From a virus (Duplodnaviria; Caudoviricetes): DNA of 51,993 bases. The notes under the pieces are model-generated. The model worked only from the letters and a program-made list of their open reading frames with translations. It was not told where the DNA came from and searched no databases. Positions 1 through 51,993 of the stretch are shown here, piece by piece. Within the stretch, counting starts at the first letter, position 1; each line of letters begins with the position of its first letter. The position numbers were made by a program, and so were the translations under genes. The DNA is taken from positions 1 to 51,993 of the IMG/VR virus record IMGVR_UViG_3300024265_000007, one strand, 5' to 3'.

Positions 1-127
1 AATCTACTTGGATGCTTTTGCCATCGACCAATTCATAACAAGCGCCCAAATCATCATCCAATTGCCAATAATAATTTAGATTATTCCACCTACCGTAATC
101 CAAGATATATTGACGAGCGTAAGAGAT
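1..127. repeat. End overlap, copy 1 (identical to 51867-51993); circular-assembly overlap
   Basis: Bases 1-127 (aatctacttgg...cgtaagagat) match the last 127 bases, and one reading frame runs through the junction. Confidence 0.97.
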
Positions 128-1648
128 TCCTTGCCCCGATAACGGTAAACTTAATATTTCGGCTTCTGGGTATTCTAATCTATATTCATCAATTTCATCT
201 GGTTCCACTACTAAAGTATAACCAATGCCTTGTTTATCCAGGCGTGATGGTGTTGTGGCTATACCGGCCCGTCCTTTTGATAATATGAATATTGTATATT
301 GTATTGTTTTTGATGGTTCTTGGTGTCCTGTAATCAATTCGGCAACACTCTCAATATGCCGTCCCTCTTCAACAAACGGCTTATTATAAGCATATATCAC
401 ATTCCCATCACCATCTAATCGCAAAGGCACTAGCACACCCCCAAAGTACCGGGACGGGCTTGCCCATGATTTTGTGTTATTCCAAGTGTCAAGCAAGAAA
501 TCATACATACTTTGGTATTGCCGTTTGGCACGTTCTCTAGTTGTGCCAGAATTAAATCCTATTGCTTTTTTGAACCCCAATTCTTTTGACCATGCCGCCT
601 TATCTGCAATATCATCCCATGACACCACACCGTTGCGCTTGGCTATCAAAATCGCCTCTGCAAAATGCCCGCGTACATAATTACCCAACACGCCATCGCT
701 CGGCAAGCCACAACAGCCAGCATCGCAACTCTTTTCTTTGTGGTGGGCATCACTCACAAATAACTTCAGGTTATACCGCTCGACAAGCTCCTGCATGTGT
801 TCAACATAGGGACGTTTCAAATCATAATTAAGTCGCATATAGCCGGGTGTTTTGGAGTGCCGCCTATAGTATTGGAATAGATTGTAACCGCACTGCCCAC
901 TAATTGCATCATACCTGATGTGGTGGTTTGGTGTGGTGCGTTTTTCTATACAAAGAAACTCCAAGCTCACAGAAAAAGCGCCGTTATCTGCCGCCTGTTG
1001 GAATAACTCATCTACACACAAATCAGACACCCCAATAATGTAAGGCCTCAATCGTAATGTAACACGATTAGCGCCCAATAACTCCGATGCCTTCCGCATG
1101 GCTTCAAAACGTTCTGACGGCGTTGCACAACCCGCCTCCAATACACTTGCCTTCTGCTCATCCGTCGTAATGATAGTGAATTTGATATGCACATTATCAG
1201 CACCGCGCAACACATCAATATATTCAGGGTCATCTAGCCACCACGCACCTTTAGTGCTGATAGAAATAGGATAATTGATCTCGCAGAAAAACCTTAGTAA
1301 TTCCAATGATTTACGAAATCGCTGCTCATACCAGTCGAAAGCATCGGACAAACCACCCCACTGCATCACATAACGCTTTTTAACATATGGGAAAAATTGT
1401 TCGTAGGCAGTACCCACTAGACTTTCGTCCATTGTGAATATTTTTTTAACTTTTTCAACATCAACCGACTTTACCTTGTGGTGCAAATAATCTTTTGCGC
1501 TTTTGCCTACTGCCCGTTGGAAAAACGAAAAACAATACAGGCATTGATGGGCGCAATTAGAGTATGTATCAAATGACAGCGGCATGGAACAATCGGTAAT
1601 CTCTGTTGACCATCTAGGCGATTGGTAATAACCTTTATCCAAATCCAT
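1..1648 (-). CDS. Radical-SAM (SPL-like) / GREB1-TAGT-like glycosyltransferase fusion, 5' part; continues across the junction to the stop at 51397 (705 aa total)
   Basis: Manual translation from ATG 1648 is open to base 1: MDLDKGYYQSPRWSTEITDCSMPLSFDTYSNCAHQCLYCFS (CxxxCxxC at 1532-1555), QWGGLSDAFD, ISTKG, LEAGCATPSERF, LRLRPYI, then YTIFILSKGR...VVEPDEIDEY...GISYARQYI...WQLDDDL. In frame with track ORF 51397..51969 after removing the 127-bp overlap. Confidence 0.9.
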   Translation of the reverse strand, partial: MDLDKGYYQSPRWSTEITDCSMPLSFDTYSNCAHQCLYCFSFFQRAVGKSAKDYLHHKVKSVDVEKVKKIFTMDESLVGTAYEQFFPYVKKRYVMQWGGLSDAFDWYEQRFRKSLELLRFFCEINYPISISTKGAWWLDDPEYIDVLRGADNVHIKFTIITTDEQKASVLEAGCATPSERFEAMRKASELLGANRVTLRLRPYIIGVSDLCVDELFQQAADNGAFSVSLEFLCIEKRTTPNHHIRYDAISGQCGYNLFQYYRRHSKTPGYMRLNYDLKRPYVEHMQELVERYNLKLFVSDAHHKEKSCDAGCCGLPSDGVLGNYVRGHFAEAILIAKRNGVVSWDDIADKAAWSKELGFKKAIGFNSGTTRERAKRQYQSMYDFLLDTWNNTKSWASPSRYFGGVLVPLRLDGDGNVIYAYNKPFVEEGRHIESVAELITGHQEPSKTIQYTIFILSKGRAGIATTPSRLDKQGIGYTLVVEPDEIDEYRLEYPEAEILSLPLSGQGISYARQYILDYGRWNNLNYYWQLDDDLGACYELVDGKSIQVD

Positions 1649-2327
1649 TATCCCACCTATCTATAAACTTGTCGCCGTCAATTTGCGACTTGCGTGCCCC
1701 TTCATGGGCAATGAAGCCATTGCGTTCACCATAAGTCAATATCTTGAGTGCGCGACTTAAATCGTCTCGTGTCTTGAATGTCACATATAGTAAGTGGGCA
1801 TCATTCAGATCGCCTTCCGGTATATCAGGCAATTGATTAGTGTCAAACACCCTATCACCCAAATCAGCCAACAACTCATCCAAATCATCAGCATTAAACG
1901 AACTCGATCCAATCGCAATCTCATCACTATTGGCAAACTCCTGTAATAGTTCCGCCAGGGCAACCGGGTCATCTATACCACTGCGCTGAATATGGTTAAT
2001 TGCCAATCCAAACGCATCAGATTGTAAATCATCCATTTCTGATATATCCAACATGGCCACCTGCCATGTGCCATTCTCCACACGTAGACAACCGGAAGGT
2101 ATCTTGCACTTATCAGGATGCCAACCATCGGCGCGTAAGTTAGTGAGCGCCATGATTGAATGGTTGCCCGCCTTGACAATACCGCGCCATAGGTGACAGG
2201 TGTCATTGAACCCGTGCGTAGAAATACTGTGCATTATTTTCCCGATGTCGCCTTCGTTTGGGTTGCGTTCCCACAACTTGAGGGTTTTAATATCCACCCA
2301 TTTTGTTGGGCTACCATCATGTTCCAT
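1635..2327 (-). CDS. ParB/Srx-like N-terminal domain protein (type found in phage DNA-modification operons)
   Basis: LKLWERNPN...IMHSISTHGF...IVKAGNHSIMAL...AINHI pattern with an acidic tail (F..DDLDELL); overlaps the rSAM-GT start by 14 nt. Confidence 0.75.
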   Translation of the reverse strand: MEHDGSPTKWVDIKTLKLWERNPNEGDIGKIMHSISTHGFNDTCHLWRGIVKAGNHSIMALTNLRADGWHPDKCKIPSGCLRVENGTWQVAMLDISEMDDLQSDAFGLAINHIQRSGIDDPVALAELLQEFANSDEIAIGSSSFNADDLDELLADLGDRVFDTNQLPDIPEGDLNDAHLLYVTFKTRDDLSRALKILTYGERNGFIAHEGARKSQIDGDKFIDRWDNGFG

Positions 2328-3306: not shown

Positions 3307-3897
3307 ATGCGTAAGCCAAAGGTATTAAAAACCGATGAGGCATTAGCATATATAGCTAAGCGGATAGGTTCAAACAAAAGATATAATTTCCACCACATGG
3401 ATACTTGGCGGCGACATGGGCGTATTAAACCATATGAAAGAGTCCTATATGTTGGAAACGTTTACACTATAAGAAGCCTGAACGCATTGGCCGATACGCT
3501 TCCGAAACCATCGCCCAACCCCGAATTGGAGAGTGCAACCCGCGCAGAGCTTATAAGCATATTGCCCAATACCTTGACCGATGCCGAATGGCAAAATGCT
3601 CTCAATTACTTTAATGGCTGCTGTGCTGTATGCGGTAGGCAGTTGAACGATATGTTTGGGCAATTTAGAGCGGCAAAAGATCATTGGATACCATTACAGC
3701 ATGGCAAGGACAACCCCGGCACGGTTGTAAAGAACATTGTTCCATTATGTCATGGTGTTGGAGGATGTAATAACCGTAAATATATTTCAATGCCTAACGA
3801 ATGGTTAAAGCGCAAATTTGGAAGGCGCAAGGCGAAACAGATAGCAGCACGAGTGCAAGCATATTTCGATAGTTTAGTACAGGAGAAACAAACATGA
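3307..3897 (+). CDS. HNH endonuclease with N-terminal HTH-like region
   Basis: CCAVCG...DHWIPL...NIVPLCH...CNNRK; AAGGA RBS. Confidence 0.85.
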   Translation: MRKPKVLKTDEALAYIAKRIGSNKRYNFHHMDTWRRHGRIKPYERVLYVGNVYTIRSLNALADTLPKPSPNPELESATRAELISILPNTLTDAEWQNALNYFNGCCAVCGRQLNDMFGQFRAAKDHWIPLQHGKDNPGTVVKNIVPLCHGVGGCNNRKYISMPNEWLKRKFGRRKAKQIAARVQAYFDSLVQEKQT

Positions 3898-5958: not shown

Positions 5959-6705
5959 ATGAATACATATCTTGCATATAGCGGTGGCAAGGACAGTACC
6001 GCTATGGCGTTGTTAATGCCCGATGCGATTCCGGTGTTTACTGATACAGGCTGGGAATTTGATGAAATCTATAACCAGATGGATAAATTCGAGGAAGTAA
6101 CCGGACGGGAAATAATACGCATTGTTCCAGATGAAACTTTACCGGAATATATCAGACGTTCAAAATTTTTGCCAGGGCATCGGGCACGATTCTGTACACG
6201 AATTTTTAAGATAGAACAGTATAATACCTGGATTGCTTTACAAGCTGCGAAAAACAAACATGTGGATATGTGTATTGGGCTGAGGGCTGATGAAGATAAA
6301 AGAGTTGGTAATATATCGGAAATTGAAGGTGTGAATATCCGTTATCCGTTACAAGAAAAGGGGGTCGATAAATTTGAAGTTATTAGAACATGCTTGGATT
6401 ATAACCTTTTACCTCGCTATCCTGTTTATATGGCTCGTGGTGGGTGTAAGGGATGTTACTACAAGCGCAAGGCAGAAGTTAAGGCGATGGTGCAATTATG
6501 TCCCGATGTGTTGGATGGATTACAGGACATAGAGGAAGAAGTCCAAGACGAACGCGGGCGATTTGCATTCATGTTTCCCAATATCAACATGAGTATTCGA
6601 GATTTGCGGCGGCAACCAGCGTTATTCGATATGACAGAAGTTTATCAGAGCGCCTCGCAACGTGCCGATTACGGGCGCAATTGCGGCGCATTTTGCGGAA
6701 GGTAA
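5959..6705 (+). CDS. PAPS-reductase-family (PP-loop, DndC-like) protein
   Basis: YSGGKDSTAM PP-loop, DTGWE, RFCTRIFK, GLRADE, RGGCKGC. Confidence 0.88.
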   Translation: MNTYLAYSGGKDSTAMALLMPDAIPVFTDTGWEFDEIYNQMDKFEEVTGREIIRIVPDETLPEYIRRSKFLPGHRARFCTRIFKIEQYNTWIALQAAKNKHVDMCIGLRADEDKRVGNISEIEGVNIRYPLQEKGVDKFEVIRTCLDYNLLPRYPVYMARGGCKGCYYKRKAEVKAMVQLCPDVLDGLQDIEEEVQDERGRFAFMFPNINMSIRDLRRQPALFDMTEVYQSASQRADYGRNCGAFCGR

Positions 6706-8354: not shown

Positions 8355-8909
8355 ATGGATGACAAGATACTTTACATCTATATGCTGGTTGATCCACGTA
8401 ATGATTTGCCGTTTTACGTTGGGAGGCCGGTTGACCCAAAGCGGAGACGTAAGGAACATATACAGGATGGTAAGCAGAAGAATACTACACATCGCAAATT
8501 GGAGCAGGGGAGTAAGTGCTGTTTTATTTCTTCTATATTATCCGATGGGTTACAGCCCGAAATAGTTATTTTGGATTCGTGCCAGATCAATGATAGTATG
8601 CGTTCTAATTTCAAGGCGATGAATTTCTGGGAACACTTGTGGGCTTCTCTGGTATTAAGTCCCAGGACTGATGTCTTTAGTATTTATTCTATCCCTATCA
8701 TCCCGGAGAAAACTATAAAGTCGTATATAGCCAATGTTAAACATGCTCTTGAAATCGGTGGTTATGCAAGATACATCAGCCTGGCCCCTAGAAAAAAGGG
8801 GCGTATGTGTTCTAGGGATATAACCAAAGCCGAGAGGAAGCGCCTGGATAAACAAATGAAAGAATTCGCAGAACTAATAGGGATTGGATGGCTTATAAAT
8901 GACCTATAA
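8355..8909 (+). CDS. GIY-YIG-like nuclease domain protein
   Basis: YIYMLVDPR...FYVG...PKRRRKEH N-terminal signature. Confidence 0.7.
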   Translation: MDDKILYIYMLVDPRNDLPFYVGRPVDPKRRRKEHIQDGKQKNTTHRKLEQGSKCCFISSILSDGLQPEIVILDSCQINDSMRSNFKAMNFWEHLWASLVLSPRTDVFSIYSIPIIPEKTIKSYIANVKHALEIGGYARYISLAPRKKGRMCSRDITKAERKRLDKQMKEFAELIGIGWLINDL

Positions 8910-40489: not shown

Positions 40490-40891
40490 CTACTGCTCAG
40501 TATAGCCAGGCTGTGCGCCTGCTACTACGGAAACGGTGTGGTCAAAGTTCGCTGCGTCATCAATTTGAACGCGAACAAATCGCTTCAATTGCTGGCGGTT
40601 CAAGTACAGAGTTTCGTCGCTGGCAGTTGCGCCAAGATCGGTGAAAGTGTCTGCTTCCCCAGTGCTGGGATTAAACAGGGCAGCAGCCGGAACAGCAGCA
40701 AACGTGCCGCCTGATGTCAGCGAGTGCTCTACGGTGACGGCGAGTGTATCAGAGCCACCAGCGTTTTGAGCAACGTTAAGGAAGATATTCCCAACATACT
40801 TGGAAACATCCAATTCGGCGGATGGTTCTGGATCAGTGTTCACCAGCCCCACAAACAGATTGTCTAGGTCTACTCTAAAGCTAAGAGCCAT
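40490..40891 (-). CDS. Putative capsid decoration protein
   Basis: 133 aa directly after the MCP; LKRFVRV motif. Confidence 0.55.
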   Translation of the reverse strand: MALSFRVDLDNLFVGLVNTDPEPSAELDVSKYVGNIFLNVAQNAGGSDTLAVTVEHSLTSGGTFAAVPAAALFNPSTGEADTFTDLGATASDETLYLNRQQLKRFVRVQIDDAANFDHTVSVVAGAQPGYTEQ

Positions 40892-43215
40892 TAGCGCACC
40901 CCTTTCATGAGATAGAATGCCTCGGGATAGTGGATGAGAATGTCGCTGTAGGTGTAAATGATGATCCGAGCCATTAGTTGATTGGCCAGTGTTACACGGT
41001 CAACAATGATTTCCAAAGCGTCCTGCATGACATATTCAATATAGCGCCATGCTCCGTAGTATATTTCTGATGTGTCGGAACTTGTCCCGGTTGTGTCAGT
41101 TATCGAAAGCTGGTTTGCGATGTGGACTGGATAGCCCAGTAAATCAGGATATGGTTCAACCCCGTAGTTATCACGGTACAGAGGCTCACCAGTTGTCGTT
41201 ATCAAGTTACGATAACGCCCCTGGCTGCGGGTGTGCATGATAAAAGCCTTTGGCTCAGTAGCAGGTATGTTGCTAGTACCAATGCGAACTTCGGCATCAA
41301 CAGCATCGGAGAACTTGGGAGTTCGCCCGTTTGTTGCCAGTGTCTTGATATGAGTTGTTGCTAACGTGGCATCACCCTCAAGCACAGTCTTAACGCCTTT
41401 GATTTCAGCACCGGTATTTGAACCGGTGACAGTGCCCGTGCCAACCAAGATTTCTTTGTCGATTAGAAGCGCGATACTACGAATTGCTTCTTCGCGGATA
41501 GTCTTCTCGACTGACATTGGCGATTGATTCAAAAGCTGAAACGGGATGTGTACCTTGGCCGCAATTGGGCGCAAGAATGCCGTTATGGTGTCAAACTTTC
41601 CTTCATCTTCGACAATATCCACATTAATGCCAGGCCGATACGCTGTCGGAGCGGTTGTCATTTTTGCCTGAACAACCGTAGCAACGCCTTGTGGGACATT
41701 ATTTTGCTGCACGCCAGCCTCAAATGCTACCACATTTTCTCGAAGCGGTGGCAAAATGGTTTCGCGCAATTCCTGCCCTAACAAGTCACCACCCATTGTC
41801 CCGATATACGGGTTTTGGGCCTTGCCATAGAAATCATTGAAATCTCGGCTGAGAGATGACTTGACAAAATCTGCCATTCCTGGTTTTCGTGCCTTGCCGC
41901 CTTGACTTGGAGCTTTGGCCGGATTATTACCCGTGCCATATGCCCCGGCGCGACTTCGCTTGCTTTGTGGTGTGCTGGTTGGCAAAGCGGACTTGAAGGC
42001 GGAATTCACATTCGACCTTTTCTTTTCGATACTGGCGAGGGCGCGGGTAAAGATTTCCCCTGCACTCTTCTCCAACCATGTCTCGGTGCGTCGCCGCGCT
42101 GATTTGGCGGCCTCTTCTTTGTCTTCTTCGTCAGCCGCTTTTACGGCCTCTTCGTCTTCGTCCATCGCTTTGGTTGCTTCTTTGTCTTCTTCGAGCAACT
42201 CTTCGGCAGCCTTCGTCGCCTCTTCTTCGAGTTCCTCTTCGTCAACTGCCTTACCCTCAAGCCCTTCTTCCATCATGCCTTGATCGAGCATAGACAACAG
42301 GCCAGCGACGGCTTCACGGAACACTTGCATGTCCATCTGCTTTACTCCTGATTTATTATGCGAATTTTTAGTTGCATCAATTCCAGGGGCACTACCAGTC
42401 ACGGGGGACTCTGTGGCTGCCGCAGTTAGATCAAATGCTTCAAATAATGATTTCTGATATATTCGTGCTTCTGTACCGTTCGGCTCTGCTGGCATAACCG
42501 TCAGGCTTCCCTCCACTATACCACACTGGTCAATATGTCCGTTGAGCGACACTTCCACAGTGGGAACATATGCGCCTAATGACCATTGATGCTTCACATT
42601 TTCGAGTACAGAATCAACCGCTATCACTGCCAGCGTCGCCTTCTGGGTGATAACTTCCGGCGACAAATTCAAAGACTTGCGTTTGGCAATTTCTTTTAAC
42701 ATGCGTTCGTAATCTTCGCGCTCGTATAACTTGGAGCGTACAAAGATGCCTATATCGTCTTCGTCTACAAACTCAAACACTCCGATTCCAATTGCACCGA
42801 AATCAGTTTTCCCATGTTCATACAGGGAAGGGCCACCCTTAATCGGGAATCCGGCTTCACGCATAAAATTGGTACGCTTACTAAAATGCTGGCTCTCTAT
42901 GTCCTGATCGTCAATTGTCCCATATCGCACTAAATGCCCCTCGGCATATCGAGCGCCACCCACCGACTTGATCGCTATCATTCCGCCGCGATAATGTTTC
43001 ATAGACTTGCCTGGTTGGGGAGACCATTGGTTACTGAGTCCGGTAGCCACAATTTCATCCGGCGAACCCTGCACGATCTGGCAACGGTCTGTTTTTTCGG
43101 CTGACTCGGTGAACCAGCGACAGTTGCCGCAAGTATGCTTGGGGTCGGTGCTTTCGCCGTACTCCGCTTCCTCTTGGGCGAACTTGGAAGACTTATCTTG
43201 GTTTTTTACTTTCAT
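40891..43215 (-). CDS. Polyprotein: HiPIP-like N-domain, prohead protease, acidic scaffold, HK97-fold major capsid protein
   Basis: LYEHG/WSLG/EGSLTVMPAEP protease; KA-DEE acidic repeats; IDKEILVGTG, FIMH, LLGYPV, IYYGAW, PEAF capsid motifs. Confidence 0.88.
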   Translation of the reverse strand: MKVKNQDKSSKFAQEEAEYGESTDPKHTCGNCRWFTESAEKTDRCQIVQGSPDEIVATGLSNQWSPQPGKSMKHYRGGMIAIKSVGGARYAEGHLVRYGTIDDQDIESQHFSKRTNFMREAGFPIKGGPSLYEHGKTDFGAIGIGVFEFVDEDDIGIFVRSKLYEREDYERMLKEIAKRKSLNLSPEVITQKATLAVIAVDSVLENVKHQWSLGAYVPTVEVSLNGHIDQCGIVEGSLTVMPAEPNGTEARIYQKSLFEAFDLTAAATESPVTGSAPGIDATKNSHNKSGVKQMDMQVFREAVAGLLSMLDQGMMEEGLEGKAVDEEELEEEATKAAEELLEEDKEATKAMDEDEEAVKAADEEDKEEAAKSARRRTETWLEKSAGEIFTRALASIEKKRSNVNSAFKSALPTSTPQSKRSRAGAYGTGNNPAKAPSQGGKARKPGMADFVKSSLSRDFNDFYGKAQNPYIGTMGGDLLGQELRETILPPLRENVVAFEAGVQQNNVPQGVATVVQAKMTTAPTAYRPGINVDIVEDEGKFDTITAFLRPIAAKVHIPFQLLNQSPMSVEKTIREEAIRSIALLIDKEILVGTGTVTGSNTGAEIKGVKTVLEGDATLATTHIKTLATNGRTPKFSDAVDAEVRIGTSNIPATEPKAFIMHTRSQGRYRNLITTTGEPLYRDNYGVEPYPDLLGYPVHIANQLSITDTTGTSSDTSEIYYGAWRYIEYVMQDALEIIVDRVTLANQLMARIIIYTYSDILIHYPEAFYLMKGVR

Positions 43216-43477: not shown

Positions 43478-44098
43478 ATGAGTGAAGATAAAAAACAATG
43501 TGTCAAATGCAATGAGTGGAAAGCCATTGATGCGTTTTATGTGCAAAGGCGTTGGTGTAAGCAATGTGTTATTGCTAAAAACACAGCCAAGAAAAAAACA
43601 TGGGCAGCACGCGCTGAAAATAAGGAACGTAGAAAAGCGTATGACCGGGATTATCGCAATCAACCAAAGAATAAAAAACAAAAACGGCTACTTGCAAAAA
43701 AGCGGGGCCCTGCACCATACGATAAGTTACAAAACATAATAAAACGACATAATTACCAGGCCAGAAAAGCTGGATTGCCATATACATTAACAACCGAACA
43801 ATGGCAACATGCTTTGAATTATTTCAATGGGTGTTGTGCTGTTTGTGAGCGTCAACTAAATGACATGTTTGGGGAGTTTACAAAAAGTGCCGATCACTGG
43901 ATACCGCTCAGTTATGAAGGTGGCGATAATCCCGGTACAGTTGCGGAGAATATCATACCGCTTTGTCATGGTGTTGATGGGTGTAATAATTCCAAAGGCG
44001 CAACTCTGCCGATGGAATGGTTACAACAAAAGTTTAGCAGATACAAATCTAAGAAGATAATAGATAAAATACAAAAATATTTCGATAGCCTGAGTTAG
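43478..44098 (+). CDS. HNH endonuclease with N-terminal zinc finger, antisense to the late operon
   Basis: CVKC...CKQC; CCAVCE...DHWIPL...NIIPLCH...CNNSK. Confidence 0.87.
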   Translation: MSEDKKQCVKCNEWKAIDAFYVQRRWCKQCVIAKNTAKKKTWAARAENKERRKAYDRDYRNQPKNKKQKRLLAKKRGPAPYDKLQNIIKRHNYQARKAGLPYTLTTEQWQHALNYFNGCCAVCERQLNDMFGEFTKSADHWIPLSYEGGDNPGTVAENIIPLCHGVDGCNNSKGATLPMEWLQQKFSRYKSKKIIDKIQKYFDSLS

Positions 44099-45733: not shown

Positions 45734-46108
45734 TTACTCCTCAAACAATTCTGTCAATGGACGGGATATATCATCCGGCTTTGATTCTTGTGCTTTCAAC
45801 AATTTCATATTCTTTGCAAACCTAGCTTTGTAGACTTCAACCATCCGCAAATCAGAAGCTATAGTGTCTTTAATTTCAGCTATTGAATCTTCGTGTGTGT
45901 TGAGTCTTATCTTTTCTTTACTATACCAAGGGTCACTCTCTACATCCTCATATTTATAAAGATGTGAGTTATCGTTTAACTCTTTTCTGATTAGCGAACA
46001 GAGTTCCCCGCTATCATATTCATCGTTTACTTCAACATGTTCTCCAGCGTCATCTATCCAGATAAGCATTACTTCGTTATCTACAAAATATTGACTTGTT
46101 ATTTTCAT
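45734..46108 (-). CDS. Hypothetical protein
   Basis: ATGA overlap with the portal stop. Confidence 0.55.
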   Translation of the reverse strand: MKITSQYFVDNEVMLIWIDDAGEHVEVNDEYDSGELCSLIRKELNDNSHLYKYEDVESDPWYSKEKIRLNTHEDSIAEIKDTIASDLRMVEVYKARFAKNMKLLKAQESKPDDISRPLTELFEE

Positions 46109-48978
46109 TTTGTACCCCCTGCAATTAACTCTTTCATCAATTCCATAATGCTCTTTGTGATGAGCTTCAACTTGCCGCGTGCCTTCGCTTTCACCGGCAC
46201 TAGGTTGCAGTCGCAATTGTCGCCATGACAGGCCAGTGTATCGCTCTGCGGCATTGCGCCTATTTTTACCCAATGCTTGAAGCGGTGGCGTTGGCCGTTG
46301 TAGCCCGAACAGCTTTTACAATGAATCTCGGTTTTTCCAAGGACCCATTCGGACATCTTGTTGCCACCGGCACTGGCGAATCCCGCATCATACATTGGCT
46401 TGACACTCTTATTGTACCATTGAGCGCCTTTACCTTGCGAACTTGTCAGCTTTTCTGATTTTACCGTTCCCAGCAAACTAGTCACGAATTGCGATTGTTC
46501 GGAGATAAACTGGTTTATCTCTACTTGTTCGGCATCGGTTGGCTCTTCGCCCAGAGCGCCGCCGTCGGTTAATCCGTCCCGATATACCTTGTTATTGGCT
46601 TTGCGAATGATACTCCGCAGCGTGGAACTAGCTTGTCGCCGTGTTGTCTTGCCGTCAATGTGGACTTGCAGCGTGTCCTCGAAGTCATCCTCGAAATCAA
46701 TTCGGGTTGCCTGAACGGACTTGATCGCTACCCAGTCCTTAACCATCCCAAAGATAGACTTGACTGTCAGCCCAGATTCTGTCTTGTTGTAACCTTTGAA
46801 CGATTCAATTACTGTGTCTGCAATATCACCGCGAGTGTAATTCGGCTCAAACTTTGGCAGGGACTTTAGTCCGTTTGCACCGCGCCGTTTGATAAACGTA
46901 TACCAAGCATCAAGTTCTTTTTGCGCCTTCTCTACCGACCAGTCCCAATTATCGACAGTCGATTGCGAACGCGCCATAACTGCCTTGACGCAAACCAGAT
47001 TTGACTTTTGGCCAACAACATGAAACTCATCATAATATTCCCGTCCGTAAACAACCCGATCAATCCCCAGAACAAACGGTTCAATCTCAATATCGGGAAT
47101 AGTGACCTCGTTCGGAATATAGGCCATTGTGATGTGAGGATGATAATCGTTCGGGTTGCTATGTTCAGATAATTCCATTCCCTTAAACTTGTCAAATATC
47201 TGGGACTGCAATCTGTCTAATGCAACCGAATTATTGACCACTAAATGGAGGGCTTGCCCATTATCAGTATCGAATATTCCCACTTCTTTAATCTCAAGTG
47301 GATTATCATCCAGCTTAAATTCGTCTATTGAATTGATCGTGCGTGCATCTAATTCCCGATCTGATATGTCCGGGGCATAGACCAATGTTACATGAAAGGT
47401 GTCCGGTTCTTGCCATTCAATATCGGCGGATTCCCCAATGATGCCTTTGATCTTGCGTTGGATTGCCAATAGTTCGTCCCGCTCTGCTAAGTCGATATAG
47501 ACGTATGCTGACTTGTCCTGCGCCTTCGCTTTCAGTGACTCAGGCTCAGTTGGCGAAAAAGGGGGCGGATCATTACCTTCCGGTGGTAAGTCTGGCAAAT
47601 CGCCACCTTCAACATCAGAAGTCTGTGCGACTACCGCCGCTTCTTCTGGCGTTCCACCGGCAACAAAACCGGACTTCAGGTCTTCAGGTGAAACAAAGAC
47701 CATGCCCGGTTGCACCATTAACAGATTGCCACGCTCCTCTTCAAATGGCTCTAATTTTTGCCGCTTCCTTGCTTCATTGATTGTGATGATTGTATTCTGT
47801 AAATTCCTCCCGGCAATCTCCGCTTCGCGGAGGTCATTCTCACTCACCCGGTCAAACTCAGAGCGGTCTACTACTAACCTATCCAGATGATATTCGGGAG
47901 GTAGTAGCGGAATAATACGACGATTGAAAAATGCGATAATGTCATCGGCGCGCGGGATAATATTGCTAGTATAGAAGCGGTAGGTTGTCTCGTCACCTTG
48001 CTTGTATCCTGCTATATCGCTATTACCCAGCATTGTTTCCGGTACGCCAAACTGATTTAATATTCGCTCACCTGTCTTTTGCGAATAGGAGGTGATTGCG
48101 CTATAATCAGGATAATCTAATTTTGTAACCTCAACATCGCCCGGCCAAAATATAAGGCCACCAACGTTTTCGGGTCCGCGTGACCTCTTTTTTGCATCTT
48201 CCAGCCCTTCGCGTGTCGCCTGTAAATTACTAAACGAGCCACCTTTTGACGAGACGACTCCCATGCCCTGAATGCCGTTTTGGAAATGAGATACAACTGA
48301 TGTCTGGATAGCGAAATCAATTTCCAGACTTTCCAGGACGGCCAGCACATCAGGGTAGCCGCGTAAATCATCTTGAGGATTGTAGCCATGCTTATAGGCA
48401 ATCTCGAACGGTTTATACGTCTCTGGACTGCCAGTGTCAAACGGTGAATAGAAATACTGATTGACTTTCCCATTGGACGCATTAAGAGACACCCCCAGTG
48501 GATTCAGCCAGTCAAGGGCGAGCAGGGGATTATATTTACTGACTGGATAATCATCACGCTTGCGAACGAGTTCAATATACAATTCGTCAAATAGTGTGAG
48601 GGAGGCCGCCACACGGAACAGGAGCGACATATGTTGATGGTCTTCATAGGCATGGAACAGTTGGAAGAGGGGATGCTGGGGAATAGGATCGTCACTTCTA
48701 GCAACTTCTGTGCCCTCCCATTTATCATTAGCTCCGGTCATGCCCCGTTCAAATCGTTTGATTGAATAGGGCAGGGTGTTTATGCCGGACGCGATTAGCT
48801 CCACACATTTTTCCACATAGCCGATCACGATATATGCTTGGGCCGCACCCCATTTTGTACGCGATAATTGATCCCCTCTATTAGCAGCGTTTACCCAGGG
48901 AGCAAGGGGCGACCAGGTGCCCAGGTCGATTGATTTCTGCACGGTGCTTGGCCGCTTTGTTTTAGTATTCCATTTCAT
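46105..48978 (-). CDS. Portal protein fused to a 2H phosphoesterase and a MuF-like head morphogenesis domain
   Basis: Portal: VEKCVELIASGI, LDWLNP, FGVPETMLG, ITINEAR. 2H: FHVTL and YHPHITMAY. MuF-like: EWVLG..EIHCKSC...CHGDNCDC. Confidence 0.87.
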   Translation of the reverse strand: MKWNTKTKRPSTVQKSIDLGTWSPLAPWVNAANRGDQLSRTKWGAAQAYIVIGYVEKCVELIASGINTLPYSIKRFERGMTGANDKWEGTEVARSDDPIPQHPLFQLFHAYEDHQHMSLLFRVAASLTLFDELYIELVRKRDDYPVSKYNPLLALDWLNPLGVSLNASNGKVNQYFYSPFDTGSPETYKPFEIAYKHGYNPQDDLRGYPDVLAVLESLEIDFAIQTSVVSHFQNGIQGMGVVSSKGGSFSNLQATREGLEDAKKRSRGPENVGGLIFWPGDVEVTKLDYPDYSAITSYSQKTGERILNQFGVPETMLGNSDIAGYKQGDETTYRFYTSNIIPRADDIIAFFNRRIIPLLPPEYHLDRLVVDRSEFDRVSENDLREAEIAGRNLQNTIITINEARKRQKLEPFEEERGNLLMVQPGMVFVSPEDLKSGFVAGGTPEEAAVVAQTSDVEGGDLPDLPPEGNDPPPFSPTEPESLKAKAQDKSAYVYIDLAERDELLAIQRKIKGIIGESADIEWQEPDTFHVTLVYAPDISDRELDARTINSIDEFKLDDNPLEIKEVGIFDTDNGQALHLVVNNSVALDRLQSQIFDKFKGMELSEHSNPNDYHPHITMAYIPNEVTIPDIEIEPFVLGIDRVVYGREYYDEFHVVGQKSNLVCVKAVMARSQSTVDNWDWSVEKAQKELDAWYTFIKRRGANGLKSLPKFEPNYTRGDIADTVIESFKGYNKTESGLTVKSIFGMVKDWVAIKSVQATRIDFEDDFEDTLQVHIDGKTTRRQASSTLRSIIRKANNKVYRDGLTDGGALGEEPTDAEQVEINQFISEQSQFVTSLLGTVKSEKLTSSQGKGAQWYNKSVKPMYDAGFASAGGNKMSEWVLGKTEIHCKSCSGYNGQRHRFKHWVKIGAMPQSDTLACHGDNCDCNLVPVKAKARGKLKLITKSIMELMKELIAGGTK

Positions 48979-49229: not shown

Positions 49230-50777
49230 CTATTCAAAACTCACCATTGCGATATAGGCCAGTGCCCCGCCGATTACAGTATCATCATGTCCACCGCTCG
49301 GCGCTGAATAGCTGTACATGCCTGTAGTTGTGCGTTTGGTTTCGTAGGTCACATGTTCTCGCTTCTGTGTATCATCGTCAAGTAACGCATAGCCGTGGTC
49401 TTCCAACCCGGTGCGATAGAAGGTAATTAACTCGTGTTTGTTGACAGCCCCCATAGTGAATGGTTTTAACTCACAATACCAAACACCAAAATCAGGGCGA
49501 TACACTATGCACTCATCTGATAGTATATCATAAGTATCTACCAAGTGGCGAATGTACCAATTCATGATATTGCTGATAGGGATAGGGCTGCCCCCACTAA
49601 ACCGTATTTCATACCCATCATCGCCCAGGGTGATTACATTATCAGGTTCTATCAATTGCCCCCACTGCTCTTTTTTGAAAGCAGACACCACGGCCAATTC
49701 AGCCACAAGTTGTTCAATGCTATCCCAAAGACTTTCGATCTGACTACTGCCCATTGAGTTTTTCTCAGGCACAACACAGCGTATCCGGTAACGCAATAGC
49801 TGTTTCAGCATTTCGTCGCGCATAATTGACCAACGTTGTTTGCGCCAGCGACCTAAGAACACTTGACGGTTAGCGATTCTGTCTGGAATTGACAAGACGC
49901 TAAAGTCATTGTCCTGCCCCCAGTCGATGCCGGCGGCATAGATATGTTCCGGGTCGTATTCCGGCCAGTCGTCAAGGAAGGTTATACGGCGTGCATCAAA
50001 TACCCCACCACTATCGGAAATGAACTGCGCTTCAATCTCTTCAGTGTAATCGTCTGGGGTCATATCCTTTATGAGTAATCGCAATGCCCCTTCGGATAAA
50101 TGCGGGTTGGAAAGCGTGCTGAAATTCCAAGTCTTCCAATCCTCGTTATCATCCTCACTGGCGTAATTGAATAACTCGAAAAACCAATTGAAACCTTTCG
50201 GTGTGCTGTAAAACTCTGCTACACCATTACGGGCTACCAACATCGGCATTCCAACCTTTTTCCATGCCTTCGAGTCAAGGTAGGCACATTCATCTAAAAT
50301 CAACTTATCGACGTTGCCACCGCGCAAAGCGTCAGGGTTCTTGCCGGTCTTCACTCGTATTCGCCCGCCACGATATTTGATAATACGCCGACCTTCATTC
50401 TTATAGAAGCCGGGTGTATCGTATAGGGGCGCAAGCCAGTCAGTGATGTAATCCCAAAACAAGTCAGATTGATCTTGGGTCGTACTTGAGATGTGAACAT
50501 GAGCGCCGTCTAACAATCCACGCCCACCGTACTGTTCGCCACCGATAGCCGACATGGAGGCCATCATCGTCTTGCCCACCTGTCTGCCCGCGGCCACGAC
50601 TTTACGCATAGCAGGCGACAACAATATATCGCTCTGTTTCTCATGTGGTGTTGGCAGATTAGGAAGCAATGACACTGTGTCACTTTCACTCCCATCTAAC
50701 CTATCATTGAACGCCTGAAGATATGAGGACATCAATCCCGCTTGAGATTTTCGCTCTGATTTTATTATCTGTAACAT
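49230..50777 (-). CDS. terL: Terminase large subunit
   Basis: AGRQVGKT Walker A, LILDECAY Walker B, STPKG, GIDWG, HDDTV; true start may be a downstream Met. Confidence 0.93.
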   Translation of the reverse strand: MLQIIKSERKSQAGLMSSYLQAFNDRLDGSESDTVSLLPNLPTPHEKQSDILLSPAMRKVVAAGRQVGKTMMASMSAIGGEQYGGRGLLDGAHVHISSTTQDQSDLFWDYITDWLAPLYDTPGFYKNEGRRIIKYRGGRIRVKTGKNPDALRGGNVDKLILDECAYLDSKAWKKVGMPMLVARNGVAEFYSTPKGFNWFFELFNYASEDDNEDWKTWNFSTLSNPHLSEGALRLLIKDMTPDDYTEEIEAQFISDSGGVFDARRITFLDDWPEYDPEHIYAAGIDWGQDNDFSVLSIPDRIANRQVFLGRWRKQRWSIMRDEMLKQLLRYRIRCVVPEKNSMGSSQIESLWDSIEQLVAELAVVSAFKKEQWGQLIEPDNVITLGDDGYEIRFSGGSPIPISNIMNWYIRHLVDTYDILSDECIVYRPDFGVWYCELKPFTMGAVNKHELITFYRTGLEDHGYALLDDDTQKREHVTYETKRTTTGMYSYSAPSGGHDDTVIGGALAYIAMVSFE

Positions 50778-51360
50778 TTTCCATTACCACATTCGCTATA
50801 GCAGCCACTAATAACATGACCTGCTCTGATGCCACCTTCAAATCGGCATCATTCAGTATTTTATTTTCCATCGAAACCAACCGGGCCCGTTCCTGTAATA
50901 ACCCGCGTATTTCATCCCAATTGATATAATCCATAAAGCCACGCTTTGTAATCTCATCAAGCGCTTGTGTTGCCTTGATTGTCTCCATAGCATCACCGGC
51001 GCTCATTGCTTTTTGTTGGTCTAAGTACGTACTGCGAACCATACCCCATAATTTGCCGATAGGGCCGGTATCAATATTTTCTATCGTCTCCGCAATCCGT
51101 GTGTCCAACAAAGCAATGTCAGATCGAAGGCTCAATAATTCCGGGTTGCTAATCGCCTCCTGATACTTATCTGCTAATCGTGTTGGTAAGTTGCGGCTAT
51201 GCCCTTTGCCTTTGTAATGCACACTTGCCTTGCCGGTTGGCGTTGCGCCGCCATGCACCCAACAAACATCCTTGCCTGTAATGCGATCCCGGCGACAAGG
51301 CTTTCCTGTGCTTTTTGTTTTCTGCACTTTGCATTTAGCCACTATGAGGTATCTCCCCAC
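50704..51360 (-). CDS. Terminase small subunit-like protein (HGGxSTG-type N-terminus)
   Basis: KC...STGKPC...CWVHGGATP; directly upstream of terL. Confidence 0.7.
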   Translation of the reverse strand: MGRYLIVAKCKVQKTKSTGKPCRRDRITGKDVCWVHGGATPTGKASVHYKGKGHSRNLPTRLADKYQEAISNPELLSLRSDIALLDTRIAETIENIDTGPIGKLWGMVRSTYLDQQKAMSAGDAMETIKATQALDEITKRGFMDYINWDEIRGLLQERARLVSMENKILNDADLKVASEQVMLLVAAIANVVMENVTDNKIRAKISSGIDVLISSGVQ

Positions 51361-51396: not shown

Positions 51397-51993
51397 TCAT
51401 TCGCTGCGCTCCGGCTTCTTAATTTCAGGTATCGCCTTAAATTGCTTCCAGTCAATAACCACATCAACTCGCCCATATTTATTAACAATTTTACAAATCT
51501 CTTCACCCCATTCGTTTACAAATTTATGGGATATATCAACATCAATGCTATCCTCATACAATGGGGTTAAGCCTCCAGGTTGCCGACTTTTAATATGGCG
51601 ATAATTAATTGCATATTTCTGAACACAAACAATATGCTCGCCTGTTGTCAAAATTTGTAGGCAAAAATCAATATCCTCTTTAGTATCAAATTCTGCCCTA
51701 TAATTACATTGATGCCGCGTAGATGTTAGAACACAACTGTATACTCTGGTGTTGAAACGATATGGCTTTTGATGCTCATCTCGCAAAAATGATTTTGCTT
51801 CTATGCCGGCCAATGCTACATCATATTTACTTGTTAATGTTTCTGTGTATCCTAGCACAATACTGAAATCTACTTGGATGCTTTTGCCATCGACCAATTC
51901 ATAACAAGCGCCCAAATCATCATCCAATTGCCAATAATAATTTAGATTATTCCACCTACCGTAATCCAAGATATATTGACGAGCGTAAGAGAT
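51397..51993 (-). CDS. 3' part (glycosyltransferase domain) of the rSAM-GT fusion starting at 1648
   Basis: WQLDDDL, RVYSCVL, KEDIDFCLQILTTG, PGG, GRVDVVIDWK. Confidence 0.88.
   Translation of the reverse strand: MSYARQYILDYGRWNNLNYYWQLDDDLGACYELVDGKSIQVDFSIVLGYTETLTSKYDVALAGIEAKSFLRDEHQKPYRFNTRVYSCVLTSTRHQCNYRAEFDTKEDIDFCLQILTTGEHIVCVQKYAINYRHIKSRQPGGLTPLYEDSIDVDISHKFVNEWGEEICKIVNKYGRVDVVIDWKQFKAIPEIKKPERSE
51867..51993. repeat. End overlap, copy 2
   Basis: Identical to 1-127. Confidence 0.97.

Follow-up and report, generated by a model that had tools for sequence, protein, structure and literature searches.

What provides the acceptor for a phage DNA glycosyltransferase when family searches of the genome find none of the enzymes that usually provide it? 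We met this question in the Caudoviricetes record IMGVR_UViG_3300024265_000007, which we analyzed as one stretch of 51,993 nt (the window) and which encodes a 705-aa protein with a radical S-adenosylmethionine (SAM) domain fused to a glycosyltransferase domain of the TAGT family, preceded by a ParB-like gene. To our knowledge, hydroxymethyl-pyrimidines arise in DNA by two routes, through a thymidylate-synthase homolog that works on free nucleotides or through an O2-dependent TET/JBP dioxygenase that works on DNA, and the thymidylate-synthase-homolog route requires a polymerase that accepts the modified nucleotide. For phages of strict anaerobes that depend on host polymerases neither route would be open, yet hundreds of them carry transferases that require 5-hydroxymethyluracil (5hmU). 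We consider it probable that the radical SAM enzyme, together with ParB, is an oxygen-independent stand-in for the thymine dioxygenase, making the 5hmU that the fused TAGT would glycosylate. The more specific idea that radical SAM enzyme and ParB form an anaerobic counterpart of TET/JBP, hydroxylating the thymine C5-methyl group in duplex DNA after replication with SAM and water, is a closer call that could go either way.

We observed domain identities, a gene order, co-occurrences and absences that together favor the first of these statements. The radical SAM gene takes the slot that a Tet-like JBP has in a ParB-transferase-terminase cassette of otherwise identical make-up. The genomes that encode it also encode enzymes requiring 5hmU and have no known source of this base, and the genome bins that carry it are, with few exceptions, named for anaerobes. 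An earlier note on this DNA, made from the letters alone, had proposed that a base is activated without oxygen and that the fused domain then adds a sugar; for these three reasons this is the best-supported reading, with a chemistry that is necessarily stated in the conditional below.

The gene itself is split in the linear rendering of the record. A repeat search of the window found that bases 51867..51993 are identical to bases 1-127 (two copies, 100% identical, spacing 51,866), so the genome is 51,866 bp; this 127-nt copy adds no genome and reflects the overlapping ends of a circular or terminally redundant assembly. In the list of open reading frames (ORFs), one minus-strand ORF runs from the ATG at 1648 to base 2 (549 aa, open at the window start) and a second from 51993 to 51397 (198 aa, open at the window end). 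The two pieces overlap by 42 identical residues (ISYARQ...SIQVD) and join into a protein of 705 aa, or 2118 nt including the TGA stop at 51397-51399. On the circle, positions 1..1648 (minus strand, start ATG 1646-1648) hold the first 549 codons and one base of codon 550, and 51397..51866 (minus strand) hold the remainder, the C-terminal TAGT part beyond the junction; AGGTGG stands immediately upstream of the start. A junction-spanning minus-strand frame of just this length had been claimed, and the ORF pieces, the 127-nt overlap and the 42 shared residues bear it out; the piece of 190 aa that was said to be visible on the ORF track is the TTG-started version, 51397..51969. The gene had also been called hidden, which holds for the linear rendering only, as the whole protein is already on record as P0001, a 703-aa protein that is 100% identical, starts two codons later and belongs to a record from a 52,010-nt contig. 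The junction is independently supported by P0001, by the IMG/VR classification of the record ('direct terminal repeats', 100% complete) and by 58 full-length homologs that align unbroken through the junction region.

The radical SAM domain comprises aa 1-445 (314..1648, minus strand), with a partial barrel like that of spore photoproduct lyase (SPL) over aa 1-300 followed by a family-specific C-terminal extension over aa 300-445. Its CxxxCxxC triad, CAHQCLYC (aa 32-39, with C32, C36 and C39; 1532..1555, minus strand), has an aromatic residue ahead of its third Cys and is the predicted site of the [4Fe-4S] cluster that would cleave SAM. When the AlphaFold model of the domain (pLDDT 93.9, pTM 0.93) was searched with Foldseek, the six best PDB matches were all SPL (PDB 4fhc, 4fhe, 4fhf; E 2.4e-7), and those listed among the 48 PDB matches at E≤0.001 were radical SAM enzymes. 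VIA-align placed SPL at Z 19.5-19.7 with an rmsd of 2.8-2.9 Å over 259-265 residues, within model residues 1-300 (best Z 19.7 over 263 residues), with SuiB as the next family (Z 16.1) and 225 chains at Z≥8. At the level of sequence, identity to SPL is 13-14%. Pfam PF04055 (Radical_SAM) gave the window protein 23.6 bits versus a cut-off of 29.5, which many close homologs exceed (P0048, for example, with 45.8 bits), the NCBIfam models rSAM_PA0069 and rSAM_Rv2578c gave 62.1 bits versus 360 and 40 bits versus 430, and the family profile run against PDB sequences found no SPL chain at E≤1 and no radical SAM match. On its predicted model, we regard the domain as SPL-like in fold and as a separate family by sequence. 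Of the earlier description of this half as SPL/Rv2578c-like, the part that stands is a radical SAM domain with SPL as its closest solved fold, while sequence-level membership in SPL, PA0069 or Rv2578c fails. The motifs quoted for the two halves are all present (CAHQCLYC, FDTYSNC, GGLSDAFD, ISTKG, EAGCATPSERF, LRPYI, ILSKGR, VVEPDEIDEY, GISYARQ, WQLDDD and KEDIDFCLQ).

Conservation across 178 full-length family members points to the residues that may matter. The three triad cysteines and K133 are kept in 178/178, C312 and C313 in 174/178 each, D300 in 174/178, C20 in 171/178 and K304 in 159/178. The SDAHHK (aa 299-304) and CCG (aa 312-314) motifs, encoded within 707..754 (minus strand), are family-specific and lie outside the SPL-aligned range 1-300, and their residues are catalytic candidates on the strength of this conservation. 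The known catalytic residues of SPL are the hydrogen donor Cys140 and Tyr98 (Geobacillus enzyme). We tried an auxiliary [4Fe-4S] cluster as a further feature and rejected it, given that C233 is kept in only 119/178 members.

The C-terminal half was claimed to be a TAGT, and here the family and fold searches agree. Pfam TAGT (PF20691) matched both ORF pieces above its cut-off of 27.5 bits, the first with 52.0 bits (E 1.1e-13; aa 451-538, profile 1-93) and the second with 54.7 bits (E 1.6e-14; profile 64-204), and PHROG 842, which is named for the glucosyl-hydroxymethylcytosine (HMC) glucosyltransferase, matched them with E 1.9e-16 and 4.8e-19. The N-terminal part of the domain (aa ~450-549; 1..299, minus strand) includes the DDD metal/sugar-nucleotide motif at 50-58 (aa 531-533), whose first D is invariant and whose second is at least 90% conserved in 59 fused sequences. 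In the whole-protein model (pLDDT 84.9, pTM 0.80) the C-terminal half matched the GT-A enzymes ColGalT1, LH3, B4GALNT1, AvpGT, SunS, TarP and TarS with Foldseek E values of about 1e-5 to 1e-4. We take the last ~255 aa to be a TAGT with a DDD motif and, as modeled, a GT-A fold.

Two known systems help in thinking about how such a domain could be used. In the base J pathway of kinetoplastids, the JBP1/2 hydroxylase acts first and is followed by the J-glucosyltransferase, from which TAGT takes its name. The window protein would share with it two steps on thymine, hydroxylation and then glycosylation by a TAGT-type GT-A enzyme, with a product predicted to be base-J-like; in base J, however, the hydroxylase is a separate dioxygenase that depends on O2 and 2-oxoglutarate (2OG), whereas here a radical SAM domain, joined to the transferase in one chain, is predicted to take its role. 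Human LH3, whose GT-A part ranks with the best Foldseek matches to the C-terminal half (PDB 6fxr and others; E 1.2e-5 to 2e-5), combines in one polypeptide a hydroxylase and a GT-A activity that decorates the new hydroxyl. This is an architectural analogy only, as LH3 has a protein substrate and an Fe/2OG hydroxylase, and it implies no homology of the hydroxylating domains.

The ParB-like gene (230 aa; 1635..2327, minus strand; PHROG 723 'ParB-like partition protein', E 1.9e-15) ends within the start of the fusion gene, its stop overlapping the radical SAM ATG by 14 nt, so that the two genes are coupled. The ParB-like protein is likely an activator or DNA-loading partner of the fusion. Relatives of the radical SAM domain are encoded on 356 IMG/VR viral contigs, from which we took 80 loci, 76 of them with a called radical SAM ORF. 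The neighbors in these 76 loci were clustered, and the clusters were named by Pfam and PHROG and then profile-searched; we used this approach instead of blastp of the window's own neighbors against the locus ORFs, which was insensitive (ParB in 4 loci, TAGT in 3).

What recurs in the 76 loci is a co-directional operon with the order Holliday-junction resolvase, ParB (ParB_N 36.7 bits vs 26.3), amino-acid:DNA transferase (ADDT; PF18724, 28 bits vs 26.2), P-loop kinase (weak AAA_18 and dNK matches), GNAT acetyltransferase, radical SAM, small-terminase-like gene, large terminase and portal. In a variant of this operon the order is ParB, a sugar-phosphate-enzyme-like gene, TAGT and radical SAM. 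The partners differ between loci: kinase and transferase are present in 14/76, kinase, transferase and GNAT in 10/76, GNAT only in 10/76, TAGT only in 9/76, kinase only in 8/76, kinase and GNAT in 7/76, other transferase combinations in 8/76 and no transferase in 10/76. ParB is more constant: it lies on the same strand, at most 6 kb upstream of the radical SAM gene, in 44/51 loci with at least 4 kb of upstream sequence. Among 59 loci from species-representative genomes, 54 have a called radical SAM ORF, and ParB is present in 47/54 of these. Starting from ParB gave the same picture. A contig scan with a narrower ParB alignment (a broader one was too diverse) returned 73 loci, partly on the same contigs, and the radical SAM gene was present in 69/69 with at least 2 kb downstream.

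The window holds the minimal version of this locus, with ParB, the fusion and the terminase genes. The packaging genes directly downstream (49230..51360, minus strand) are context and not part of the enzyme; they include a 218-aa ORF without a family match in the small-terminase position by gene order (50704-51360, minus strand) and the large terminase (49230-50777, minus strand; PHROG 2, Pfam Terminase_6N). Related loci share the order radical SAM, small-terminase-like gene (TerS-like), large terminase (TerL) and portal. In the loci with a separate TAGT (L023, L029, L032, L033, L075, L077 and others), there is usually a protein of ~357 aa between ParB and TAGT, whose N-terminal part matches phosphoheptose isomerase and polynucleotide-kinase-like families (PHROG 1238, E 3.5e-20) and which, from these matches, may supply or trim the sugar.

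A very similar cassette is known from phages that use a dioxygenase. O'Toole et al. (PNAS 2026, PMC13229309) show ParB to be an activator of the cognate phage thymine dioxygenase (5mYOX) on double-stranded DNA, and report as the most frequent 5mYOX neighbors glycosyltransferases (31%), ParB (27%), terminases (19%) and endonucleases (17%), together with O-methyltransferases and kinases. In Rhodococcus phage Tonitrus and Gordonia phage Wooper the cassette consists of ParB, a Tet-like JBP, aGPT-Pplase2, a 5hmU DNA kinase, a hypothetical gene and the terminase (PMC11955845), with the terminase directly after the cassette in Wooper and a few small genes between them in Tonitrus. As far as these cassettes are described there, they resemble the radical SAM loci in having a ParB-like gene first, 5hmU group-transfer enzymes next and the terminase adjoining, and in acting after replication, which for the radical SAM loci is our reading. 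The ParB proteins are also similar, as hhalign aligned the window ParB with that of Wooper at a probability of 95.5% (E 1.5e-8, 158 columns, shared AGNH motif); a search of the ParB profile against PDB sequences returned no ParB chain. The difference lies in the first enzyme. The Fe/2OG dioxygenase is absent from the radical SAM loci and the radical SAM enzyme stands in its slot, O2 would not be its substrate, and in the window the putative first enzyme and the glycosyltransferase are a single polypeptide.

The hosts differ as well. Among the 59 genome-bin loci, 49 are on records with titles that name lineages of anaerobes from gut, rumen or sediment (Prevotella and other Bacteroidales, Lachnospiraceae and other Clostridia, Selenomonadaceae, Victivallales, methanogen bins, Treponema, Thermotogota), 2 on typically aerobic or facultative ones and 8 are unclear, whereas the hosts of the actinophages are aerobic actinobacteria. 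The ADDT of the radical SAM loci has relatives in 17 deposited phage records, and the hosts of all 17 belong to Gordonia, Mycobacterium, Microbacterium, Rhodococcus or Lysinibacillus. In this search the actinophage-type cassette was confined to phages of these five genera. The cultured strict anaerobe Selenomonas ruminantium S137 carries the radical SAM cassette in a prophage (contig NZ_FNJQ01000002.1, L129:4258-7275), in the order ParB, ParB, kinase-like gene, radical SAM (431 aa), TerS-like, TerL and portal, which means that an experimental system is at hand.

We then have to ask whether the hydroxymethyl base could come from one of the known sources. Six-frame searches of the phage's own genome found no Tet_JBP and no Thymidylat_synt at E≤1, and those of 27 related records, of which 18 have a completeness of at least 90%, found neither at E≤0.1. 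In phage M6 the same searches detected its thymidylate-synthase homolog (E 5.5e-20), and in Tonitrus and Wooper the annotated Tet-like JBP of each phage (7.7e-10 and 6.1e-6). The TAGT is thus without its usual TET/JBP partner in this genome and in 27/27 related records, by a search that found the control in 2/2 actinophages. A C5-methyltransferase was detected in 4/28 records and not in the phage's own genome, and since these enzymes are mostly absent, 5-methylcytosine (5mC) would not be generally available as a starting base. The earlier note's statement on this point holds by family searches, which detected in the genome neither TET/JBP nor a hydroxymethylase of the thymidylate-synthase type nor a C5-methyltransferase. 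The note had also proposed to survey homolog neighborhoods for exclusivity with TET/JBP, and Tet_JBP was found in 0/27 related records. In characterized systems the kinase, the ADDT and TAGT all act on a hydroxymethyl-pyrimidine (PMC8989533, PMC5889632, PMC13229309). The replication genes of the phage include a DnaB-type helicase, a replication initiator, Erf and a DnaQ-like exonuclease, and no family match to a DNA polymerase catalytic subunit was found among its proteins (Pfam, PHROG), which fits modification of finished DNA, after replication.

Based on these observations, the following sequence of events seems plausible to us. The phage would copy its DNA with ordinary nucleotides, leaving modification to be made on finished DNA, where the radical SAM domain and the co-translated ParB-like protein would act on thymine. 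Reductive cleavage of SAM would give a 5'-deoxyadenosyl radical that takes a hydrogen from the thymine C5-methyl group, leaving the same thymine-methyl radical that SPL and M6 gp53 handle; that these two are the nearest characterized relatives supports this part of the chemistry. The radical might then be oxidized and captured by water, perhaps by way of Cys20 and the Cys312-Cys313 pair, to give 5-hydroxymethyluracil or an equivalent activated methylene without O2. Finally the GT-A domain of the TAGT would move a sugar from a nucleotide-sugar to the new hydroxyl, giving a base-J-like glycosyl-hmU before the terminase packages the DNA. In evolutionary terms the simplest account is non-orthologous displacement, in which, under conditions without O2, an oxygen-independent radical SAM enzyme has replaced the ParB-dependent TET/JBP-type dioxygenase (5mYOX), ParB has been kept and the transferases finish the base.

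If this is true, it would add a new class of reaction to those of radical SAM enzymes and open a new O2-free route to hydroxymethyl-pyrimidines in DNA, it would explain how gut and rumen phages hypermodify their DNA, and it would extend the activator role of ParB to a second, unrelated enzyme class. It could also yield an enzymatic tool that writes 5hmU and glycosyl-hmU into DNA without oxygen. DNA of this kind would resist restriction enzymes and could bias sequencing, which is of relevance to phage therapy and to the metagenomic study of gut viromes.

Several points weigh against an oxygen-free thymine hydroxylase and should be set beside this. The substrate, the product and every chemical step are ones that we infer. 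We know of no precedent for hydroxylation of thymine in DNA by a radical SAM enzyme, and the reaction requires an electron acceptor; an auxiliary-cluster motif is not evident in the 178 members, whose extra conserved cysteines are C20, C312 and C313. Absence of the dioxygenase is harder to judge than it may seem, in that Tet_JBP scored both actinophage control enzymes below Pfam's cut-off, and the model is reported to miss some phage 5mYOXs (PMC13229309). Most ORFs of the phage are without a Pfam or PHROG family match, which leaves room for an unrecognized hydroxylase. The kinase assignment of the neighbors comes from weak matches (AAA_18 26.1 bits, below cut-off), GNAT acetyltransferases, which are known tailoring enzymes, are frequent neighbors, and host physiology was assigned from record titles and general knowledge. 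The window ParB is missed (E≤1e-4) by the profile for the ParB found in most other radical SAM loci, and hhalign between the two gives a probability of only 32.6%, so that by sequence comparison we place the window ParB in a different subgroup from that of most radical SAM loci. Finally, the sole characterized phage DNA-hypermodification radical SAM enzyme described in PMC8989533, gp53, is a downstream tailoring isomerase.

This last enzyme deserves a closer look because it suggests a different role. M6 gp53 is an SPL-like radical SAM isomerase of Pseudomonas phage M6 that works through a 5-thymidyl-DNA radical (Lee et al., NAR 2021/22, PMC8989533), it sits in a cluster with a kinase and an ADDT, and the published roles of radical SAM enzymes in phage DNA modification, as described in these papers, are those of tailoring isomerases (PMC8989533, PMC5889632). 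The enzyme of our loci might likewise act after group transfer, as a gp53-like isomerase or by reworking the sugar, on an acceptor made by an unrecognized phage or host enzyme, which we regard as unlikely though worth weighing. Both enzymes are phage-encoded and SPL-like with a hypermodified thymine in DNA as the known or predicted target, they are remote homologs by hhalign (probability 94.9%, E 4.3e-8, 21% identity) and match the same weak NCBIfam models, and many of the radical SAM relatives stand last in operons with ADDT, kinase and GNAT. The similarity is nevertheless confined to the core, aa 11-232, leaving the family-specific C-terminal half uncovered, and tblastn of the radical SAM domain gave no match in 50,697 phage records, M6 included. 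As described by Lee et al., gp53 comes after kinase and transferase steps, acts on N-alpha-glycinylthymidine and is paired with a pyridoxal phosphate (PLP) enzyme, and in M6 a thymidylate-synthase homolog makes the 5-hydroxymethyl-dUMP (5hmdUMP); none of the partners of gp53 (5-HMUDK, ADDT, PLP enzyme, dUMP hydroxymethylase) was found in the window by family searches, and 0/28 records here have the thymidylate-synthase-type source or Tet_JBP. No ADDT was found in the stretch covered around 45/76 loci (some stretches are truncated), and the radical SAM gene and ParB are constant across changing sets of partners. With ParB and the fusion as the only such genes in the window, a tailoring enzyme would lack a substrate unless an unrecognized gene provides it.

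The DNA could also be modified in some other way, at a different base or position, through a non-hydroxyl group such as a thiol or an adenosyl adduct, or by a TAGT that acts on an atom of a canonical base while the radical SAM enzyme has an unrelated role. Members of TAGT do act on more than one hydroxymethyl-pyrimidine, PHROG 842 being named for the glucosyl-HMC enzyme, the making of 5-hydroxycytosine by thymidylate-synthase homologs (PMC13326640) is an example of new acceptor chemistry, and the conserved CC pair suggests covalent chemistry. On the other side, the co-occurring enzymes are known 5hmU ones (PF18724 above its cut-off, kinase) in the order seen in Tonitrus and Wooper, SPL and gp53, the nearest characterized enzymes by fold and profile, both proceed by way of a thymine-methyl radical, and the general lack of C5-methyltransferases leaves 5mC unavailable; we think such a modification improbable. 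That the domain is an SPL-like repair lyase with a glycosyltransferase attached incidentally is, in our view, very improbable indeed. JGI does label many members 'DNA repair photolyase', and SPL shares with the window domain not only the closest solved fold and radical SAM chemistry but, if our reading is correct, also thymine in DNA as the target and a thymine-methyl radical. SPL repairs damage and regenerates SAM, whereas we propose that the window enzyme modifies DNA. A sequence-level match to SPL is absent, the PA0069 and Rv2578c scores are far below their cut-offs, the Cys triad is at residue 32 as opposed to about 90 in SPL, and SDAHHK and CCG belong to an extra 145-aa C-terminal extension that is conserved in the window family. 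Recurrent fusions to TAGT in both orders and to a methyltransferase, and a strict linkage to ParB and to DNA-modifying transferases beside the terminase, sit badly with repair. The lesion itself, spore photoproduct, forms in the dehydrated DNA of spores and would be unexpected in phages of gut anaerobes.

The architectures of the family show how exchangeable the partners of the radical SAM domain are. Of 7999 candidates scored in a word-indexed search, 1158 proteins reached E≤1e-3, and an exhaustive profile search of 50%-identity cluster representatives gave 263 at E≤1e-30, 988 at 1e-10 and 2847 at 1e-3. Among the 120 best homologs, TAGT follows the radical SAM domain in 79 and precedes it in 2, the radical SAM domain is alone in 24, and 15 have another C-terminal extension. 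By Pfam the TAGT-first proteins are P0117, P0120, P0132 and P0144; P0034 has an FkbM-type methyltransferase domain in the place of TAGT, P0044, P0084 and P0099 have weak P-loop nucleotide-kinase-like N-domains (below cut-off), and the C-terminal extension of P0110 had no usable match in the Protein Atlas. Pairwise identity among these proteins is 45-60% for the radical SAM core and 24-40% for TAGT. In a FastTree tree of 113 rows (of the 120, we left out 7 that were fragmentary or split by inteins), the window protein falls in a supported clade of 24 rows. Fusions to TAGT account for 14 of these, other extensions for 6, stand-alone proteins for 3 and the FkbM fusion for 1, and the closest relative of the window protein, P0002 (83% identical), is without TAGT. 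This mixed clade and P0002 indicate that the partner changes while the radical SAM core stays.

Full-text literature searches found no paper on this radical SAM family, the supplements of the 5mYOX papers, among them Dataset S10 of PMC13229309, where radical SAM neighbors could be listed, and Iyer et al. 2013 (NAR 41:7635), which reportedly defined TAGT, being outside their scope. Inteins (Intein_splicing, Hint, LAGLIDADG) interrupt the family members P0081, P0129, P0134, P0170, P0211, P0213, P0218 and P0221. Inteins usually occupy conserved sites of genes that are indispensable to a phage.

We noted some other features elsewhere in the phage genome. A PAPS-reductase-like gene (5959-6705, plus strand; PF01507 E 6.1e-10, PHROG 424 E 1.9e-34) lies 3.6 kb from ParB on the opposite strand; blastp showed no counterpart in the related loci. 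The portal protein (46105-48978, minus strand) matches PF04860 over aa 55-406 and has a C-terminal 2H-phosphoesterase/LigT-like domain at aa ~500-650 (PF13563 E 2.2e-10; weak Acb1 match, 1.7e-4), which, judging by these matches, could be an anti-CBASS-type phosphodiesterase for cyclic nucleotides, carried in the virion. The major capsid protein (40891-43215, minus strand; 774 aa) has its Phage_capsid domain only at aa 475-771, after a long N-terminal extension. Three plus-strand genes, at 3307-3897, 8355-8909 and 43478-44098, comprise two HNH/endonuclease VII-like genes and one GIY-YIG-like gene, and the one at 43478-44098 is on the strand opposite to the surrounding head genes, resembling a homing endonuclease insertion.

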